Source of the DNA: Candidatus Moraniibacteriota bacterium
GTDB lineage: Bacteria > Patescibacteriota > Minisyncoccia > Moranbacterales > UBA1568
NCBI GenBank assembly: GCA_963743885.1
Contig: CAVURJ010000001.1
Span: 355,173-419,172, forward strand
Direction: 5' to 3'
Length of the DNA stretch: 64,000 nt
Both the position numbers and the translations under genes were made by a program. Every line of letters starts with the position of its first letter. Position 1 is the stretch's first letter. Below are positions 12,802 through 20,347 of this stretch, one piece after another. Under the pieces are notes generated by a model. The model was not told the origin of the DNA. It saw nothing but the letters and a program-made list of their open reading frames with translations, and searched no databases.

Positions 12802-14223
12802 GTGTCTGAAGCGAAATATATGCAACCAGAATCATTTTTCAAGGGAAAGAAAGTGACAGTGTTCGGTCTTGGCCTCAATATGGGAGGCGTAGGGACGGTC
12901 CGTTTTTTGGCTGAGCATGGAGCTCGTGAGATCGTCGTGACCGACATCAAGACGCGTGAAGAGCTCGCGCCTTCCATGGAAAAACTCGCGAAATACAAGC
13001 AGATCACTTATGTGCTCGGCCAACATCGGCCGGAGGATTTTTCGCATACGGACATGGTGATTAAGAATCCGGGTATTCCATGGACGAATGAATACATACG
13101 GGCGGCGGAGCAGGCCGGTGTGCCGGTCGAGATGGATTCGAGTCTCTTCTTCCGATTTTCTAAGGCACCGATCATTGGTGTGACCGGGACTAAGGGCAAG
13201 ACGACTACGGCGAGCCTGATAGCACATATCCTCCAGGCGGCGGGACGCGATGTCGTGCGCGCTGGCATCGGTCAGGTCGGCGTACTGTCCGTGCTCGAGA
13301 AGATTTCGCCGGAGAGCGTCGTCGTCTTCGAGCTTTCTTCATGGCGGCTTTCAGCGCTCGGTCGCATTAAGAAGAGTCCGCATATCGCTGTCCTCACCAA
13401 TCTCTATCCTGACCACCTCAACTATTACGGCACGATGAAGGCGTATGCTGATGATAAGCGGTATATCTTCTCGTCGCAAAAGGGGAAAGATATACTGATT
13501 GCCAATGCTGATAACGGATTTGTCCGAGATATGGCGCAGGATGCACCGGGAGAGCTCGTATGGTTTTCAGAGGCGGGTCTGGCGGATGGCGATGGTGTCT
13601 GGTACTCCGATGGCGTGCTGTTTGCCCGAGTGCAGGGTAAGGAAAGCGTGCTCCTGCCGATCGAGAAGGTACCGCTCAAGGGAAGGCATAATATTGGCAA
13701 TGTGCTGGCGGCAGCCGGGGCGGCGCTTGCGGCTGGACTTTCTGTCGAGGAAGTCCGCTCCGGTATCGAGAGCTTTCAGGGCGTACCGCATCGTCTCGAG
13801 CGTATCGCCGAGAAGGGCGGCGTCCAGTATTTCAATGATACGGCGGCGACGATTCCGGAGGCGGCGATTGCGGCGCTTCGGGCGTTCGATCAGCCGGTCA
13901 TCCTTATTGCGGGCGGGAGCGATAAGCGGCTCGAGTTCGGCGCGTTCGCAGATGAGATCCTGGCGCGCTCCAAGGCACTCATCCTTTTCAAGGGTGTCGC
14001 GACGGATAAGCTGGTCCAGGCGCTGAGAGAGCGTCTGCCGGAAAGCGAGAAGGAGCGGAGGTTCGTCGTGGTGGAGAGCATGGGCAAGGCAGTGGAGTTT
14101 GCTGCCCGCGGCGCCGAGCCAGGAGATACTGTGTTGTTGTCGCCGGGCGCGGCGAGCTTCGGGCTGTTCCGCAACGAGTTCGATCGTGGCGAGCAGTTCT
14201 CCGCTCGGGTGAAGGAGTTGTAA
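12802..14223 (+). CDS. murD: UDP-N-acetylmuramoyl-L-alanine--D-glutamate ligase
   Basis: GVTGTKGKTTT P-loop and overall Mur ligase architecture; N-terminal Rossmann motif VFGLGLNMGG. Confidence 0.9.
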   Translation: MSEAKYMQPESFFKGKKVTVFGLGLNMGGVGTVRFLAEHGAREIVVTDIKTREELAPSMEKLAKYKQITYVLGQHRPEDFSHTDMVIKNPGIPWTNEYIRAAEQAGVPVEMDSSLFFRFSKAPIIGVTGTKGKTTTASLIAHILQAAGRDVVRAGIGQVGVLSVLEKISPESVVVFELSSWRLSALGRIKKSPHIAVLTNLYPDHLNYYGTMKAYADDKRYIFSSQKGKDILIANADNGFVRDMAQDAPGELVWFSEAGLADGDGVWYSDGVLFARVQGKESVLLPIEKVPLKGRHNIGNVLAAAGAALAAGLSVEEVRSGIESFQGVPHRLERIAEKGGVQYFNDTAATIPEAAIAALRAFDQPVILIAGGSDKRLEFGAFADEILARSKALILFKGVATDKLVQALRERLPESEKERRFVVVESMGKAVEFAARGAEPGDTVLLSPGAASFGLFRNEFDRGEQFSARVKEL

Positions 14224-14236
14224 GATTTTCTTTGAA

Positions 14237-14270
14237 ATACCCCTTTTAAAAGGGGTATTTTTTGTTTTTT
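14237..14270 (+). terminator. rho-independent terminator after murD (the hairpin is also a TACCCC/GGGGTA palindrome)
   Basis: ataccccttttaaaaggggtat followed by a T-run. Confidence 0.75.
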
Positions 14271-14280
14271 TAAATAGGAG

Positions 14281-14347
14281 TTGACAGTATATACCCCCAT
14301 GGGGTACTATATATGTATACCATAAGGGGGTATAGGTATAATAAGGA
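14281..14347 (+). promoter_or_regulatory. promoter region with TTGACA(14281)-18-TACTAT and a second TATAAT (about 14342), overlapped by two TACCC-N-GGGTA palindromes
   Basis: ttgacagtatatacccccatggggtactatat...tataccataagggggtataggtataat; the palindromes resemble CsoR/RcnR-family operator architecture. Confidence 0.55.
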
Positions 14348-14376
14348 GTTCTTTATAAACCAAGGAGGAATCAATC

Positions 14377-14814
14377 ATGTGTCATGCAACGAATCCGGAA
14401 GTCTGGTTTCGTCCCAACTCCAGGCTCAGTCTTGATAGGCTGGTCGGTCTTATGCGATCGGGTGAACTCGTCGCTACGCCCCGTCTTGGTATCCGTGACA
14501 GACATCATCCGAAAGGATATGTTCCAGGACAGCGCGTGACACTCAGGGTGTTCGACGCCGCTGGAGCGGAACGGCTCACTGCGAGCATCAAAGTGGAGCA
14601 TCTCTGCATCAAGCCGCTCTCGCGGCTTACGAAGCAGGATCTTCTTGGTACGATGATGTACGATGACTGGCATCAGATCCAGTCTGACCTCTCGGGTTTT
14701 GAGGGAAAGGTCCTTGATGAGGAGAATATGGTTACGATCGTAGCCTTTTCCTATGTTCATCCGTTGATAACAAATAAGGAGAAAGACTATGGCGACTATC
14801 GGATCGCTTGCTGA
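14377..14814 (+). CDS. hypothetical protein, possible ASCH/PUA-like domain
   Basis: 145 aa; LMRSGELVATPR...GQRVTL resembles the ASCH core; weak. Confidence 0.45.
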   Translation: MCHATNPEVWFRPNSRLSLDRLVGLMRSGELVATPRLGIRDRHHPKGYVPGQRVTLRVFDAAGAERLTASIKVEHLCIKPLSRLTKQDLLGTMMYDDWHQIQSDLSGFEGKVLDEENMVTIVAFSYVHPLITNKEKDYGDYRIAC

Positions 14815-15793
14815 GAATGGTGTCATTACGGTGGCTTCGCAGCCGCCGAAGAATGGCGAGCTGTCCGGTTCCGGACCGCTTGTCATTCCGCTCATCGCGG
14901 AAGATTATCCCGCGAAGACGGCGGTAATGTGGAATGCTGCTTTCAAGGCTTTTGGGTTGCAAGATAGGAACGCCATGGTAATAGCCGATCCTCTTCAGGC
15001 TGGCGAGATCCTCGAGGCATTTCGGAAGGACCCGAGATATATCGGCGGGGGCGCCGGTGTCGGCTTCAAGGAGGCAGTTGTTGCACATCTTGATGCTGTC
15101 GAACCAATCGCGCAAGCGATGGGTTCGGTCAATATCATCAGGAAAATTGATGGCCGTCTCGTGGGGAGCAATACCGATGGAGCCGGGTACGTGGCGAGCT
15201 TGGAGCGATTGTTTCCAGAGGCATCCGTCGAGAGGAAGCATATCCTGATGCTCGGTGCTGGCGGTACCGGTCGCGCGATCGCGTTCTTTCTCGCTCGAAA
15301 AGGCGCGCGGATTAGTATCGTGAACCGGACTGTCGAAAAGGCGGTCGAGCTCGCGAGCGCCGTGAATGCATTCGTCTCAACGGAAGCCGCAAGGGGCTTT
15401 GGGCGCGAACATATCGGCGAGTTGATCCCGTCTGCTGATGCCGTCGTATCGGTCATCGATGACGCTCATTCGCCGCTTGATGAGTACTCGACGCTCGGGA
15501 GCATGGCGCTACCGATTACTGAAGCATCTGTGCTCGCCAATCGGCAGGAAACGGCAGATCTGCTTGCATCTGCGAGGCCCGGACTCGTTGTATCGGATAT
15601 CCGGATCCGGAAATCCGAGACGGCGATGCTTCGGCAGGCACGAGAAGCGGGATTTGCCGTGCTGAATGGTATTCCGATGGTTATCAACCAGGGTGTCCAG
15701 GCATTCTGGTGGATCTATGGTGATACGCTTTCTTCTCGGGGTGTTTCCGAGCAGGATGTAGAGCACATCATGAGAGATGCCGCTTCTTGGTGA
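14789..15793 (+). CDS. aroE: shikimate dehydrogenase family protein
   Basis: substrate-binding N-domain (VMWNAAFKAFGL), NTDGAG and LGAGGTGRA NADP-binding motifs; overlaps the upstream gene by 26 nt. Confidence 0.75.
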   Translation: MATIGSLAENGVITVASQPPKNGELSGSGPLVIPLIAEDYPAKTAVMWNAAFKAFGLQDRNAMVIADPLQAGEILEAFRKDPRYIGGGAGVGFKEAVVAHLDAVEPIAQAMGSVNIIRKIDGRLVGSNTDGAGYVASLERLFPEASVERKHILMLGAGGTGRAIAFFLARKGARISIVNRTVEKAVELASAVNAFVSTEAARGFGREHIGELIPSADAVVSVIDDAHSPLDEYSTLGSMALPITEASVLANRQETADLLASARPGLVVSDIRIRKSETAMLRQAREAGFAVLNGIPMVINQGVQAFWWIYGDTLSSRGVSEQDVEHIMRDAASW

Positions 15794-15812
15794 ATAGCTG
15801 CAGCGCAGCGAA

Positions 15813-15847
15813 GGGAGAATCTTTCGAGATTCTCCCGATTCTTTTTT
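15813..15847 (+). terminator. rho-independent terminator after the aroE-like gene
   Basis: perfect hairpin gggagaatctttcgagattctccc followed by TTTTTT. Confidence 0.75.
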
Positions 15848-15876
15848 CAGGGTTGATATTTTTTTTCAAGCGATGT

Positions 15877-15891
15877 ATCCTTTACCCTAGA
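15877..15891. promoter_or_regulatory. TACCCTAGAGGGGTA palindrome (CsoR-family operator-like) just upstream of the csoR-like gene
   Basis: GC-tract inverted repeat flanked by TA, 30 nt upstream of ORF 15924. Confidence 0.5.
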
Positions 15892-15923
15892 GGGGTATAT
15901 CTTAATTCGAATGCCGTATTATT

Positions 15924-16181
15924 ATGCCAAAAGCATCAACGAAGCCGGAACAAGAGAAGATTCTCGACCGCATATCTAGGATAGAAGGACAGCTCAAGGG
16001 CATCCGCCGCATGGTGGAGGGCGGGAAGGAGTGTCTTGATATCATCACGCAGATCAGCGCTATCCGCGAAGCGGTGGCAATGCTCGGTGTAGAGCTTCTC
16101 CGGAATGATTTCGTCTGCAAGTGGGAAGGGAAGAAGAAGATCGACGAAGCCTATCTCAAGTCTCTCTTCAAGATGCAGTAA
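15924..16181 (+). CDS. CsoR/RcnR/FrmR-family (DUF156) transcriptional repressor
   Basis: 85 aa; IEGQLKGIRRMVEGGKECLDIITQISAIREAVAMLG matches the CsoR-family helix alpha1-alpha2 signature; second Cys present (FVCK) but no His in the usual H-x-x-x-C position. Confidence 0.8.
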   Translation: MPKASTKPEQEKILDRISRIEGQLKGIRRMVEGGKECLDIITQISAIREAVAMLGVELLRNDFVCKWEGKKKIDEAYLKSLFKMQ

Positions 16182-16198: not shown

Positions 16199-17122
16199 AT
16201 GTACGATATTATCATCATCGGTGGGGGGCCGGGCGGAGTAGCAGCCGGTGTCTATGCGGCTCGCAAGCAGATGAAAGCGCTTCTCATCACGGAGAATTTC
16301 CTTTCGCAGTCGGCGGTCTCGGCGAGCATCGAGAACTGGATTGGCACCGTGACTATCCCAGGGTATGAGTTTGCACAGTCTCTTGAGAAGCATCTGCGGG
16401 CTCAGGAGGGGATCGAAATCAAGACTGAAGACCGGGTAGCGAAGGTAGAGGAGATCGCTTCCGGTGGGTATGCGGTCACGACCGTGAAAGGCGAACGCTA
16501 CGAGACCAAGACGATCGTCATCGCGGCCGGCGGCCGGCATCGCCATCTCGAGGTGCCGGGCGAGGAGAAGTTCGTCGGCAAGGGTGTCGTATTCTGCTCG
16601 ACGTGCGATGCACCGTTCTTCCGCAGCAAGCGGGCGGTCGTCGTAGGGAGTGGCAACTCAGCGCTTGAGGCAGTGGAGGATCTCTTGCCGTATGCGAGCG
16701 AGATTACGCTCCTTGTCCGTTCGGGCGAGCTGAAGGGTGATCAGGTGACGCGTGAGAAGATCCTGGCTGATAGCCGTGTGAAGGCCATCTTTTTCGGAAC
16801 GACGAAGGAGATCCTGGGTGAAGAAAAACTCACAGGACTCCGCTATCTCGATACGCAGTCGAATGAGGAGAAGGTCATCGAGACCGATGGTGTCTTCGTG
16901 GAGATCGGCATGCTGCCGAATACGGAATTTGTGAAGGGCTTGGTCGATCTCAATGAGCGTGGCGAGATTATCCTTGATCATCGGACCAAAGCGACGTCGA
17001 AGCCCGGTATTTTTGCGGCGGGCGATGCGACCGATGCACCGTACAAACAGAACAATATTTCTGCCGGTGAAGGCGTCGTCGCAGCACTCTCGGCGTATGA
17101 CTTTGTGCGGAAAGGGAAATAA
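16199..17122 (+). CDS. trxB: thioredoxin-disulfide reductase
   Basis: YDIIIIGGGPGG FAD motif, CSTC redox-active pair region, second GSGNSA NADPH motif; start chosen at the internal Met of ORF 16121. Confidence 0.85.
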   Translation: MYDIIIIGGGPGGVAAGVYAARKQMKALLITENFLSQSAVSASIENWIGTVTIPGYEFAQSLEKHLRAQEGIEIKTEDRVAKVEEIASGGYAVTTVKGERYETKTIVIAAGGRHRHLEVPGEEKFVGKGVVFCSTCDAPFFRSKRAVVVGSGNSALEAVEDLLPYASEITLLVRSGELKGDQVTREKILADSRVKAIFFGTTKEILGEEKLTGLRYLDTQSNEEKVIETDGVFVEIGMLPNTEFVKGLVDLNERGEIILDHRTKATSKPGIFAAGDATDAPYKQNNISAGEGVVAALSAYDFVRKGK

Positions 17123-17138
17123 TCTTAAGGAAGAACGA

Positions 17139-17166
17139 AGAGGGGTTTGTATGCCCCTCTTTTTTG
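17139..17166 (+). terminator. rho-independent terminator after trxB
   Basis: agaggggtttgtatgcccctct followed by TTTTTT. Confidence 0.75.
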
Positions 17167-17216
17167 ATATATTCTTCCATTTTTTTCATTCCACCTAGAG
17201 CCACTTCCTACGTAAT

Positions 17217-17372
17217 CTCCCACCCGGAAACTCTTTTCTCGAGCAAAAGGAAACTCGAATGGCTTGTTTCTAACGAAGCTCTTCCCTCCCTCTTCACGAC
17301 CTAAGGAATAGCTTCGAGAAACAAGCCCTTCTCAGACAGTCCTTTTGCCTCAAAAAGACATCCGGGTGGGAG
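17217..17372 (+). repeat. structured repeat element, C family, copy 1 (candidate ncRNA); core about 156 nt
   Basis: aligns to 27518..27673 with compensatory substitutions in three nested stems (ctcccacccgg/ccgggtgggag versus ctcccgcccag/ctgggcgggag, and others). Confidence 0.65.
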
Positions 17373-17696
17373 ATGCCTTTTCAAAATATTTCTACTTATT
17401 TAGAGGTTAAACTTCTAAGCAGAAGAATTTTTTGGCAGCGCCAGAGACCCAGGAAACACGTCTGCGGGGGCGGAATCGCCTCGTCCCCATTTCTGGAAAA
17501 ACAGAAGGAAATCCTTGATAAGATGGATAGATAAAAGAGGCTTCGAAAGCCTCTTTTATGGCGCCATTCGCGACCCTTTACAGAATCGAAAAAATGTGCT
17601 ATAATGGAATGTTTGTGGAGATGCTGAGAGGCATATCCGGAACCGCCATCTTTCCGGGCGTATCGGAAAAATGTATCTTGAAAAGGAGATGACGCC

Positions 17697-18323
17697 ATGG
17701 AAACCCATGTCCCCATCGAAAGTGTTACCCCTGGTCAAGCGGGGAAGCTGTACGACATGTTCGTCGCGAGCTTGTGCAAGAGCGGCGCTCAAAAGGAGCC
17801 CTCGCAACAAGTGATCGAACATCAGGGCACGCAGGTGGTTCGCGATATGGTGGCCGTGTTCTGCAAATATGTGGAAGCGATTAGCAACTTAATCGTCCGT
17901 CACGCCACTGTGAATCGCACCCGCACCCCGACGGAAGCGATCGATGCGACTGGTCGGAACAAGTATCTTACCGATGATGTCGTCAAGACGATGCCACGAG
18001 GCGAGGGCGACGAAGTGGACGTGGTCTTCTTCAAGCCCGACGAGTCGGCATACGACAAGCATGGCCTGATCAGCGACGACGAGGTCGCCAGGCAGTACGA
18101 GCTGCGCGGTTTCAAGCCCGCTGACCCGTATGCGCTCGCTGCCGTCAACGAGGCCGATCCGGCGTTTGCTGATGAGCATCCCAATGGTACTCATTGGCAG
18201 GATGCGAATGGCAACTGGTGCTATGCGGCCTTCGGTCGGTGGCGCGACGAGCGTGGCGTGCACGTCCACCGGCACGGCTACGACTGGCGTGGCCGCTGGT
18301 GGTTCGCTGGCCTGCGCAAGTAG
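17697..18323 (+). CDS. DGR target (variable) protein; C-terminal variable repeat, probable C-type-lectin-fold ligand-binding domain
   Basis: 208-aa ORF with RBS aaggag; C-terminal 32 codons are homologous to the template repeat 18742..18839 with adenine-specific differences; ends ...WWFAGLRK. Confidence 0.8.
   Translation: METHVPIESVTPGQAGKLYDMFVASLCKSGAQKEPSQQVIEHQGTQVVRDMVAVFCKYVEAISNLIVRHATVNRTRTPTEAIDATGRNKYLTDDVVKTMPRGEGDEVDVVFFKPDESAYDKHGLISDDEVARQYELRGFKPADPYALAAVNEADPAFADEHPNGTHWQDANGNWCYAAFGRWRDERGVHVHRHGYDWRGRWWFAGLRK
18223..18320 (+). repeat. DGR variable repeat (VR), about 96 bp, at the 3' end of the target gene
   Basis: about 80% identical to the TR; every internal difference lies at a TR adenine; shared 3' block tggtggttcgctggcctgcgcaa is a candidate IMH. 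Confidence 0.85.
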
Positions 18324-18369
18324 TCCTCTGGACTTTGGATTTTGCTCTGACCTTTGAGCTTAGTCCTTA

Positions 18370-18401
18370 GCCCTTTGACCCCGCATTTTACCAACATGGT
18401 A
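18370..18401 (+). terminator. GC-rich hairpin plus T-run downstream of the VR (terminator and/or DGR homing-associated hairpin)
   Basis: ccccgca-N17-tgcgggg followed by tttcatttttt, about 50 nt after the target-gene stop. Confidence 0.5.
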
Positions 18402-18741
18402 GTGCGGGGTTTCATTTTTTCAATTTCTTACATTTTGATATACTGAAACTGGTAGTAGGCGAATCTGGAGGTGATTACGGTTGCTTCCGGCCGAATCCAG
18501 TATCCATACATCGAGAATATCTTCGGACTACGGTTCAGGGTAGGGTGATGTATGCAGACACTTCATCCTTCGATAAGACTCAGGATGACCCCGAGTTTGT
18601 CGATGGGTCAAAAATGAAGATACTTGGTATAGGGCACTATGGCATTTGAGATGCCGAATCCGATTCAATTCCGAGAGTTCGTCTCTGCCTAGTCGGCGGA
18701 TGAAGAATCAAGGAATGGTGGCATGGGCGGTGCCTTATACG

Positions 18742-18839
18742 ATGCGGCCTTCAATCGGTGGAACGACAAGCGTAACGTGAACGTCAACCGGAACGACAAC
18801 GACTGGAATGACAACTGGTGGTTCGCTGGCCTGCGCAAC
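18742..18839 (+). repeat. DGR template repeat (TR), about 96 bp, adenine-rich (many AAC codons)
   Basis: same orientation as the VR; noncoding although ORF finders call 18723..19040; abuts the 3' end of the avd-like gene on the opposite strand. Confidence 0.85.
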
Positions 18840-18844
18840 TCTCT

Positions 18845-19243
18845 TCATTTCTCTCCCTTCCTTGTGTTGGGAGAGTTTTGTTTCAAGAGTTGTCCGTTCC
18901 AGCCGCCGAGCATCCGCCCGATTTCGTCGATCTTTTCGGAAAGTGCGATATACTTCTTGGTATCGACCGATTTCGTTTCCCAGAGGACGAGCAGGAGAAC
19001 TTTGAGTGTGTCGACTTTTCGTATCGCATGGCGGACATAGGGCATCTTTTCCTGCGGCGAGAGGAAAGCGGCTGCCGAGACGCATTCGATGCACTCTATG
19101 AAAATATGATCGATTCGTTGGCCGAGAGAATAGCGATGCGTCTTGGGAAGCGAAGAAAGAATATTGTACCAGAATAAATAAGCATCCTTTATCTTATGCA
19201 AGACAGGCACAAGTCTGGGGGGGGTAACTCCAGGAAGCATCAT
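18845..19243 (-). CDS. avd: DGR accessory variability determinant (Avd), four-helix-bundle protein (23S rRNA-intervening-sequence protein family)
   Basis: 132 aa; pattern Y..L....Y.IL..LPKTHRYSLG.RI....I...E....A...............K.....LL.L...........S.KIDEIGRMLGGW matches Bordetella phage bAvd and other DGR Avd proteins. Confidence 0.8.
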   Translation of the reverse strand: MMLPGVTPPRLVPVLHKIKDAYLFWYNILSSLPKTHRYSLGQRIDHIFIECIECVSAAAFLSPQEKMPYVRHAIRKVDTLKVLLLVLWETKSVDTKKYIALSEKIDEIGRMLGGWNGQLLKQNSPNTRKGEK

Positions 19244-20347
19244 AGCAAAACAAAAAAGAAATTAGCGGCTGCCTATGATGATATCATATCTCTTGAGAAT
19301 CTTCTCGATGCCTGGAAAGAATTCCTGAAGGGGAAAAAGAACAAGCAGGATGTCCAGGCATTCGAAGCGCGTCTCATGGACAACCTCTTCTCGCTCCATG
19401 AAGACCTGAAGCACAAAACCTACGAGCACGGTGGCTATCAGGCTTTCAAGATAAGTGACCCGAAGCCGCGCGATATCCACAAAGCCTCGGTACGTGACCG
19501 GCTCATCCATCACGCCATCTACCGAATCCTCTATCCGTTCTTCGATACGCTCTTTATCGCCGATTCATATTCTTGCCGCGAAGAGAAAGGCACACACCGG
19601 GCACTTGATCGTTTCCAGGCCTTCGCTCGGAAAGTCTCGTGCAATCACACAAAGACCGCCTGGGTGCTCAAGTGTGATATCCGGAAGTTTTTCGCGTCGA
19701 TTGATCAGGATATTCTACTTAGTATCTTACAGGAGCGGATACCGGACCGGGACATACTGTGGCTTTTGGAGAAAGTGATAGGAAGTTTTTCCTCTACCTG
19801 TTGTCATCCCGGGCTCCCGCCCGTACCGAACCGGTGCGTTCGGGCGGGTGACCCGGGATCCAGAGGGGATGGATTCCGGCTCGGGGGCCGGAATGACAGA
19901 GAAGAGGATTCTATGAGAAAAAATGGGCTCCCACTTGGCAACCTCACTTCGCAGCTTCTCGTGAATATCTACATGAACGAATTCGACCAGTTCGTGAAGC
20001 ATCGCCTGAAAGCGAAATACTCTATACGTTACGCAGATGATTTTGTCTTGTTTTCAAGAAACCACGAAGAGCTTGATGGCTGGCTTATCCTCATCACGGA
20101 GTTCCTTTGGGAACAGCTTCATCTGAAGCTCCACCCAAACAAGGTCTCTATCCAGACAGTCGCTTCGGGTGTGGACTTCCTTGGGTGGACACATTTTCCT
20201 GATCATCGGGTGCTCCGAGGAGCGACGAAGCGGAGGATGTTCCGGAAAGCGAGTGAGAAGAATGTCGCTTCATATATTGGATTGCTCTCGCATGGGAATG
20301 GGTACCGACTCCAAAAGATGTTGGCAGAGCGTTTTGGTGTGGAGTGA
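19196..20347 (+). CDS. DGR reverse transcriptase
   Basis: VRDRLIHHAIYRIL...FIADSYSCREEKGTHRALDRFQ is nearly collinear with Bordetella bRT; YADDFVLF catalytic motif; LGNLTSQ motif 4 (the I/LGxxxSQ DGR signature); ATG start overlaps the divergent avd start by about 48 nt. Confidence 0.9.
   Translation: MQDRHKSGGGNSRKHHSKTKKKLAAAYDDIISLENLLDAWKEFLKGKKNKQDVQAFEARLMDNLFSLHEDLKHKTYEHGGYQAFKISDPKPRDIHKASVRDRLIHHAIYRILYPFFDTLFIADSYSCREEKGTHRALDRFQAFARKVSCNHTKTAWVLKCDIRKFFASIDQDILLSILQERIPDRDILWLLEKVIGSFSSTCCHPGLPPVPNRCVRAGDPGSRGDGFRLGGRNDREEDSMRKNGLPLGNLTSQLLVNIYMNEFDQFVKHRLKAKYSIRYADDFVLFSRNHEELDGWLILITEFLWEQLHLKLHPNKVSIQTVASGVDFLGWTHFPDHRVLRGATKRRMFRKASEKNVASYIGLLSHGNGYRLQKMLAERFGVE

Follow-up and report, generated by a model that had tools for sequence, protein, structure and literature searches.

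A CsoR/RcnR-family regulator of Patescibacteria with a predicted role in control of the thioredoxin system

Introduction

A stretch of 64,000 nucleotides from the genome of a Candidatus Moraniibacteriota bacterium (assembly GCA_963743885.1, contig CAVURJ010000001.1, positions 355,173 to 419,172 of the forward strand; hereafter the window, with position 1 as its first letter) encodes an 85-residue regulator of the CsoR/RcnR family (15924..16181, + strand) followed by a gene for a thioredoxin reductase (TrxR)-family flavoprotein. The best explanation of the sequence and comparative data is that this protein represents a founding-type member of a Patescibacteria-wide CsoR/RcnR subfamily that would control the thioredoxin system. 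It is fairly probable that the regulator acts as an autoregulated dithiol-switch repressor of this system, responding to a general thiol-oxidation signal (peroxide or disulfide stress) and being reset by thioredoxin. Such a signal is favored because the invariant partners of the regulator in 70 related loci are thioredoxin-system genes, and genes for sulfide detoxification or metal efflux are absent from them. The family, the fold, the residue pattern, the identity and position of the operators, the operon structure and the conservation of these features are established.

Family, fold and sensing residues

The regulator is a genuine CsoR/RcnR-family protein with the three-helix CsoR fold, as the earlier note on this DNA had proposed under the older family name DUF156. 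It matched PF02583 (Trns_repr_metal, formerly DUF156) with 68.1 bits against a cut-off of 22.8, and 10 CsoR-family members in PDB matched it at E < 0.01, the nearest solved relatives being Geobacillus thermodenitrificans CsoR (4M1P, the best match, E = 5.9e-13), Streptococcus pneumoniae CstR (SpCstR; 7MQ1, the second) and Escherichia coli FrmR (5LBM). An AlphaFold2 monomer model based on 31 homologs had a pLDDT (predicted local distance difference test) score of 82 and contained helices at residues 6-32, 37-60 and 75-81; the top 21 PDB matches of this model in Foldseek were all FrmR, CsoR, CstR or InrS proteins, with a probability of 0.98-1.00 and a template modeling (TM) score of 0.53-0.66.

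The absence of the Cu-binding Cys-His-Cys triad, already pointed out in the earlier note, was borne out: the regulator has no His at all and only two Cys, C37 at the X position and C65 (within '...LLRNDFVC') at the Z position. Residue conservation was counted in the best 120 of more than 350 homologs, which are 70-94% identical to the regulator and, where the source is named, belong nearly all to Candidatus Moranbacteria/Moraniibacteriota or other Patescibacteria. Both C37 and D62 were found in 120/120 of these homologs and C65 in 119/120, and C37 follows a Glu or Asp in 119/120. Position 61 is more variable, with 84 Asp, 35 Asn and 1 His, the N-terminal length varies strongly, and a Met-Pro start occurs in 11/120.

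For subfamily typing, sequences of characterized members were taken from the PDB alignments and aligned with the regulator family by MAFFT; Staphylococcus aureus CstR (SaCstR) and Bacillus subtilis CsoR (BsCsoR) were used solely to query PDB and to add two rows to the alignment, and the typing is not based on them. In this alignment the X and Z Cys are 28 residues apart in the regulator family, compared with 29 in every characterized member, and the gap falls directly before C65, which places the invariant Asp62, and not Asn61, at the His/Asn 'Y' position. Asp62 is thus aligned with the His ligand of CsoR and InrS and with the wedge Asn55 of SpCstR, and the segment after the Z Cys (alpha2-alpha3) is 6-7 residues shorter than in any characterized member. 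The reading 'NDFVC instead of HxxxC' in the earlier note therefore holds when counted back from Cys65; in the alignment, one residue fewer lies between the two Cys, Asp62 takes the Y position, and Asn61 is shared by 35/120 homologs. The alignment that it had suggested as a check for metal ligands at the sensing positions revealed no His there, and it also revealed an invariant Asp, a possible ligand for hard metals.

None of the known sensing motifs was found complete. Compared with the Cu(I) triad x-C-H-C (Cys36, His61 and Cys65 in Mycobacterium tuberculosis CsoR), the regulator lacks the His and has Asp62/Asn61 at Y, and the H-C-H-H and H-C-H-C ligand sets of RcnR and InrS have no counterpart, as no His is present at W, Y or Z. 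The P-C-H-x motif of FrmR (Pro2, Cys35, His60) likewise lacks its His, and its Pro2 is present in the window protein but rarely in the homologs. From the CstR pattern, the regulator family shares the two conserved X/Z Cys without His, and neither the 29-residue spacing nor a conserved wedge Asn, which in x-C-N-C lies four positions ahead of the Z Cys. In addition, a GC-tract inverted-repeat operator, as is general for the family, lies at the regulator's own promoter, both in the window and in 69/69 related loci. The regulator falls outside the CstR, Cu-CsoR, FrmR and RcnR/InrS subfamilies.

Operators and transcription units

The motif TACCC-N(2-10)-GGGTA was observed 3 times in the 64 kb, with 0.08 occurrences expected, and 0/100 shuffled sequences contained 3. 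Exact TACCC-N5-GGGTA sites are present only at 14292 and 15883, and a search for further sites showed that, at N5 spacing with at most one mismatch, the window contains only 14292..14306 (O1), 14318..14332 (O2) and 15883..15897 (O3), all of them at sigma-70-type promoters identified by a promoter scan. When up to two mismatches were allowed at N5, 18 sites were detected against 8.8 expected, and all 15 two-mismatch sites look like background.

O1 (TACCCCCATGGGGTA) is a perfect palindrome and an exact match, whose sequence is identical to the regulator operator of one related locus (L015). It lies within the spacer and the -10 box of a promoter (14281..14310, + strand; TTGACA at 14281..14286, an 18-bp spacer and TACTAT at 14305..14310) that was the top site of the region, with 10/12 matches and near-consensus boxes. 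O2 (TACCATAAGGGGGTA), the sole site with one mismatch in the 64 kb, begins 8 bp past this -10 box, and the centers of O1 and O2 are 26 bp apart. O3 (TACCCTAGAGGGGTA), an exact match, abuts the -10 box of the regulator promoter (15853..15881, + strand; TTGATA, a 17-bp spacer and TATCCT), beginning 1 bp past it and spanning the expected transcription start. The palindrome upstream of the regulator had thus been recognized correctly but placed 6 bp too low, at 15877..15891. Autoregulation, also proposed from the outset, is supported by O3 and by the equivalent footprint in all related loci with upstream DNA.

Among the palindromes that had been noticed ahead of the gene at 14377, O1 and O2 stand as operators, whereas the one at 14237 does not. 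This palindrome (14237..14258, ATACCCC-TTTTAAAA-GGGGTAT) has N10 between its TACCC and GGGTA cores, in contrast to the N5 of the operators, and was considered as a fourth operator and rejected on account of this spacing and of its place in the intrinsic terminator of murD. The latter assignment was made because a 12-bp stem followed by UUUUUUGUUUUUUU lies 11 nt past the murD stop codon; the terminator (14234..14261, + strand), detected by a terminator scan and RNA folding, has -15.2 kcal/mol and z = -3.9, and its U-run reaches about 14272. As a side observation, the stem of this terminator is built of the operator half-site ATACCCC/GGGGTAT, even though the whole window has no more than 15 copies of TACCC, and such a stem was seen in 0/70 related loci. 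These half-sites may be the remnant of a duplicated operator or an extra site of low affinity.

According to open reading frame, family, promoter and terminator analyses, the + strand of this region is organized in three transcription units. The first contains murD (12802..14223) and its terminator. The second comprises p145 (14377..14814; 145 aa, no Pfam or NCBIfam family) and a gene for an AroE-like NAD(P)-dependent dehydrogenase (14789..15793; 334 aa, PF01488 and PF08501), driven by the promoter that carries O1 and O2 and closed by an intrinsic terminator at 15813..15836 (terminator scan; RNA fold -16 kcal/mol). The third comprises the regulator (PF02583) and the TrxR-family flavoprotein disulfide reductase (16199..17122; 307 aa, low-molecular-weight type, CSTC active site), which are predicted to be co-transcribed given the gap of only 17 bp between them, and ends at an intrinsic terminator at 17137..17162 (terminator scan; RNA fold -16.8 kcal/mol, z = -5.25). 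The adjacency to a thioredoxin-reductase-type gene that had drawn attention to the regulator proved to be conserved synteny in related loci.

The translation signals of these genes differ. The leader 15898..15923, like its equivalents in the related loci (L001-L070), contains no recognizable Shine-Dalgarno sequence ahead of the regulator gene, and a start context ...GTATG about 25-30 nt past the operator is conserved in the window and in these loci. Strong AGGAGG/AAGGAG sites, on the other hand, precede p145 (AGGAGG) and the AroE-like gene.

Conservation of the operator and the gene neighborhood

A scan restricted to one genome per species yielded 73 loci, 70 of which (L001-L070; 493,607 bp) are patescibacterial relatives, mostly Moranbacteria, whose regulators have 47-86% identity. 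These 70 loci contain 61 exact TACCC-N5-GGGTA sites, and all 61 are located at most 350 bp upstream of the regulator; 8 more loci have a site with one mismatch at the same place, and the last one has no upstream DNA, so that the operator precedes the regulator in 69/69 loci with upstream DNA. An alignment anchored on the site revealed a TTGACA-like -35 box, a 17-bp spacer and a TAATAT -10 box that overlaps the operator by one base, its last; the regulator promoter of the window aligns with this TTGACA-17-TAATAT promoter. Spacer and flanking sequences diverge while the operator position stays fixed, and this geometry is the one expected of a promoter-occluding repressor. A separate observation is that the closest relative (L201, with a regulator 94% identical) has a degenerate operator, TACCACAGAGAGGTA.

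The gene order in Moranbacteria is amidohydrolase - murD - regulator - (variable gene) - TrxR-like, and a same-strand TrxR-family gene was found downstream in nearly every locus of sufficient length. With genes rescued by tblastn included, the regulator is followed by glutamate dehydrogenase (GDH) and then the TrxR-like gene in at least 23 loci, by the TrxR-like gene directly in at least 18, by a short-chain dehydrogenase/reductase (SDR) and then the TrxR-like gene in at least 9, and by thioredoxin (WCGPC) and then TrxR in 6, including Wolfebacteria. The remaining neighbors in the 70 loci are housekeeping genes (MurA, MreB, NusG, L11 and UppP). No homologs of thioredoxin, GDH or SDR were found elsewhere in the window.

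Genes for rhodanese, persulfide dioxygenase, sulfide:quinone oxidoreductase (SQR), coenzyme A-persulfide reductase (CoAPR) and TauE were present in 0/70 loci, as were genes for P-type ATPases, cation diffusion facilitators (CDF), RcnA, metallochaperones and metal transport (copper, nickel). A tblastn search with a CopA query found no CopA in the window or in L001-L070, and the window contains neither a second PF02583 gene nor copA; a true C-H-C CsoR from the same scan (L073) adjoins copA.

Further regulon members were sought by a metagenome-wide scan for TATACCCC-N4-GGGTATA, which returned 120 sites. Of these, 76 adjoin a PF02583 gene, mostly one with a His-x3-Cys motif, across phyla. The matches are dominated by promoters of canonical C-H-C CsoR genes of other phyla, and only L108 represents the regulator subfamily. 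By this measure TACCC-N5-GGGTA is the standard operator type of the CsoR family, and the metagenome scan is uninformative on the regulon.

It was also observed that many records of metagenome-assembled genomes titled 'uncultured Bdellovibrionales' (e.g., L005, L006, L010 and L013), one titled 'Gammaproteobacteria' and one titled 'Undibacterium' show the amidohydrolase-murD-regulator-trxR order of Moranbacteria with 60-80% protein identity; these taxonomic labels are probably wrong.

The reductase and the p145/AroE-like module

The TrxR-like reductase resembles the catalytic core of AhpF. It scored 308 bits with the AhpF model TIGR03140 (model positions 213-511 of 515) and 262 with TRX_reduct, both under the curated cut-offs, and the closest structure was the AhpF catalytic core 1FL2 (223 bits, versus 184 for the best TrxR). 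The protein has a CSTC redox center and no AhpF N-terminal domain. Its pyridine-nucleotide motif reads LLVRSGELK where AhpF has LLEFAPEMK, with the Glu of AhpF replaced by Val-Arg-Ser...Lys, which hints at the use of NADPH.

The AroE-like protein remained below the cut-off of the aroE equivalog (TIGR00507, 133.8 bits versus 200.2), and its homologs are at most 60% identical and typical of Patescibacteria. For p145, no Pfam or NCBIfam match was found even at E = 10 and a word-indexed search returned p145 alone, whereas an exhaustive search recovered 48 distant relatives. In three long relatives that were checked, the p145 region is fused N-terminally to a shikimate-dehydrogenase-like domain, and many further homologs of about 470-490 aa appeared in the search with the AroE-like protein. 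Because of these fusions and long homologs, p145 and the AroE-like protein are considered a conserved two-part module typical of Patescibacteria, with p145 as the probable partner domain.

The p145/AroE-like pair is absent from all other regulator loci and here fills the gap between murD and the regulator, a gap that looks like an insertion hot spot; in L201, an rve-family integrase/transposase gene (L201:32..628) was observed in the same gap, directly upstream of the regulator. Elsewhere (e.g., in L075, L198 and L200) the module is found near ApbE, FMN_bind, NAD_binding_1 and ECF-sigma genes. It is uncharacterized and redox-looking, and no CsoR-type operator was found near the modules of other genomes (L074-L077 and L198-L200). 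In the window, this module, with a promoter of its own that carries two operators, seems to take the place that a dehydrogenase gene has in the regulon elsewhere.

Proposed mechanism and alternative explanations

In the proposed mechanism, the reduced tetramer would bind the 15-bp inverted repeat TACCC-N5-GGGTA at O1-O3 and block RNA polymerase. Occupancy of O3 at the -10 box would repress the operon of the regulator and its TrxR/AhpF-core-like reductase, and occupancy of O1 and O2 would co-repress the inserted operon of p145 and the AroE-like dehydrogenase. Once Cys37 and Cys65' are oxidized, forming either a disulfide between subunits or a crosslink bridged by sulfur, the affinity for DNA would drop, and the derepressed reductase, drawing NAD(P)H from the dehydrogenase that accompanies it, would bring back thiol homeostasis and re-reduce the repressor. 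The redox responsiveness is reasonably deduced from the content of the regulon, from which the kind of oxidant is also inferred. Repression by the reduced protein and its release through a dithiol switch are drawn by analogy with the biochemistry of CsoR and CstR (PMC8643695, PMC11672702), and the feedback loop is a further inference.

A CstR-type sensor of persulfides or other reactive sulfur species is the most probable of the alternatives, though still unlikely. In such a sensor, Cys37 would attack persulfides and form di- to tetrasulfide links with Cys65', and the TrxR-type reductase would serve as the depersulfidase system. The conserved Cys at X and Z without His agree with this possibility, as do the acidic residue ahead of Cys37, which resembles SaCstR and SpCstR, the rank of SpCstR 7MQ1 as second-best PDB sequence match, the Asn that the window protein itself has four residues ahead of Cys65, and the fact that many Patescibacteria inhabit sulfidic groundwater. 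CstRs also show no sharp discrimination between H2O2 and persulfides in vitro (PMC8643695). However, the genes that would be expected around a persulfide sensor, from rhodanese to TauE, are missing from all 70 loci, the spacing of the Cys is 28 instead of 29, conservation fails at the wedge Asn (84/120 homologs have Asp at position 61), and CstRs have an alpha2-alpha3 segment that is longer by 6-7 residues. The analogy to CstR drawn in the earlier note fails on these grounds, namely regulon content, spacing and conservation of the wedge Asn. Still less probable is metal sensing through a non-canonical site, in which metal binding releases DNA or a Zn-thiolate serves as redox switch. Such a site could hold Cu(I) as a linear bis-thiolate, or Zn, Cd, Fe or Co in a Cys2-Asp(-Asp/Glu) arrangement. 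The invariant Asp62 at the position of the His ligand, the adjacent Asp/Asn61 and Glu36, and the fact that the majority of characterized CsoR-family members sense metals all suit such a site, but the window protein has no His, no His is conserved in its family, the second-shell Tyr/Glu residues of Cu-CsoR are absent, and no P-type ATPase, CDF, RcnA or metallochaperone gene accompanies the regulator in any of the 70 loci, whereas the C-H-C CsoR of L073 adjoins copA; nor does the window hold another PF02583 gene or copA. Metal sensing is thus disfavored through gene context, and not through sequence.

Sensing of aldehydes or other electrophiles in the manner of FrmR, via Pro2 and Cys37, is very improbable. 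Although the window protein begins with Met-Pro, the best fold and sequence matches include FrmR entries, and carbonyls are conceivable substrates of SDR and AroE-like dehydrogenases, Pro2-based sensing was rejected because Pro2 is not conserved (11/120, with variable N-terminal length); moreover, the equivalent of His60 is absent, no frmA-type gene is present, and the second Cys, which FrmR does not need, is invariant. Least credible of all is the idea that the palindromes are chance GC-tract repeats, RNA hairpins or terminators and not protein-binding sites. The palindrome at 14237 is indeed a terminator, and the terminator scan also flagged 15883..15897 as a weak stem of 6 pairs. On the other hand, 3 motif occurrences against 0.08 expected are hard to attribute to chance, O1-O3 lie in promoters and not after genes and are followed by no T-run of the terminator kind, the promoter position is kept in 69/69 loci despite diverging flanks, and the motif accompanies PF02583 genes across phyla.

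Several points weigh against an oxidized-thiol sensor and the regulon as proposed here. The AlphaFold2 monomer model is weak at residues 61-74 (pLDDT 65-73), that is, at the end of helix 2 and the following loop. The inducer is deduced from regulon content alone, and the thioredoxin/TrxR system also reduces persulfides, so that the same regulon would be compatible with a reactive-sulfur signal. Asp62 (invariant), Asp/Asn61 and Glu36 around the Cys could make a Cys2-Asp metal site. The p145/AroE-like module is assigned to the regulon from this window alone, the modules of other genomes having no such operator, and the role of the dehydrogenases in supplying NAD(P)H is speculation.

A broader proposal would make the subfamily the missing oxidant (peroxide or disulfide-stress) sensor of the CsoR superfamily and the main regulator by which Patescibacteria, with their minimal genomes, answer redox stress. 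Its sensing site, Cys37...Asp-Asp62-x2-Cys65, would possibly be metal-assisted, and the TrxR/AhpF-core reductase would be coupled to dehydrogenases (GDH, SDR, or AroE-like with p145) that produce NAD(P)H and can stand in for one another. This proposal is tentative, being plausible but somewhat short of probable.

Significance

The CsoR superfamily is a model of how one small scaffold evolves different inducer specificities, including Cu, Ni/Co, formaldehyde and persulfide. A subfamily that is sharply defined and highly conserved, with a predictable operator and a putative thioredoxin-system regulon, is a ready candidate for a new class of inducer and regulon. Patescibacteria are uncultured and have minimal genomes with few regulators, and this regulon is among the few that can be reconstructed with confidence in them; it suggests how these organisms may respond to exposure to oxygen or oxidants.

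Other features of the window

A near-perfect long hairpin of about 165 nt (17212..17376; -79.9 kcal/mol, z = -9.85), with outer arms ATCTCCCACCCGGA/TCCGGGTGGGAGAT and no Rfam family at gathering score, is located between the terminator of the trxR-like gene and the target gene of a diversity-generating retroelement; it could be an element like a miniature inverted-repeat transposable element or a structured RNA. The retroelement itself (17697..20347) consists of this target gene (17697..18323), which encodes a 208-aa protein of no Pfam family and contains the variable repeat (18223..18319), a template repeat (18742..18838) that is 82% identical, the differences lying at template adenines as judged by eye, and a reverse transcriptase gene (19196..20347; PF00078). 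In addition, five clustered tRNA genes (Thr, Tyr, Thr, Trp and Glu) occupy 52964..54567, and a 15-mer from the 3' end of tRNA-Glu (TTCCCCTTAGGGCTA, at 54170) is repeated at 54344 and 54553, which suggests partial duplications of the tRNA end, such as integration scars.

Comparison with known systems

Full-text searches of the literature brought up no work on regulators of the CsoR family in the candidate phyla radiation and none on a CsoR-family repressor of thioredoxin genes. The likely pairing of an oxidized-thiol signal with a thioredoxin-system target is one not yet described for the CsoR family, and the proposed mechanism itself is of an expected kind. A sequence-similarity-network study of 2021 left clusters 6-9 of the family uncharacterized, its guesses being Cu in clusters 6 and 7 and Ni/Co in cluster 8 (PMC8643695), and as of 2024 no H2O2-specific CsoR-family sensor had been characterized, which blocks a side-by-side study of selectivity between reactive oxygen and reactive sulfur species (PMC11672702).

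CstR, known from S. aureus, Enterococcus faecalis and S. pneumoniae (7MQ1), shares with the regulator the PF02583 fold, the X and Z Cys without a His ligand, the acidic residue before the N-terminal Cys and the TACCC/GGGTA-type operator, and release of the repressor by Cys-Cys' crosslinking would be expected in both. CstR dithiols are oxidized in vitro by H2O2 as well as by persulfides, and CstR clusters are defined by rhodanese, persulfide dioxygenase, SQR, CoAPR and TauE genes in the genomic neighborhood (PMC8643695). The regulator family differs from CstR in its 28-residue spacing, in Asp-Asp or Asn-Asp replacing the wedge Asn, in a much shorter alpha2-alpha3 segment, in a predicted regulon of the TrxR-like gene with or without thioredoxin or a dehydrogenase, and with no sulfurtransferase, persulfide dioxygenase, SQR or CoAPR, and in its restriction to Patescibacteria.

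With the Cu(I)-CsoR proteins of M. tuberculosis (2HH7), B. subtilis and G. thermodenitrificans (4M1P), the regulator has in common the operator architecture, the autoregulatory placement and both Cys positions, but it lacks the His at Y, has Glu or Asp instead of Tyr before Cys37, and has copZA neighbors in 0/70 loci. Similarly, the reductase shares the CxxC active site and the FAD and NAD(P)H domains with AhpF and low-molecular-weight TrxR, whereas the N-terminal double thioredoxin-fold domain that AhpF needs for AhpC reduction is absent.

Thiol-based regulators of thioredoxin genes include RsrA/SigR, acting on trxBA in Streptomyces, Spx, acting on trxAB in Bacillus, and the OxyR regulon. The regulator would share their logic, in which a Cys switch induces thioredoxin and its reductase, which in turn re-reduce the sensor. 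These systems are nevertheless built on unrelated folds, namely an anti-sigma factor, an ArsC-like protein and a LysR-type protein, in contrast to the CsoR-family tetramer, which is proposed here to act as a promoter-occluding repressor.

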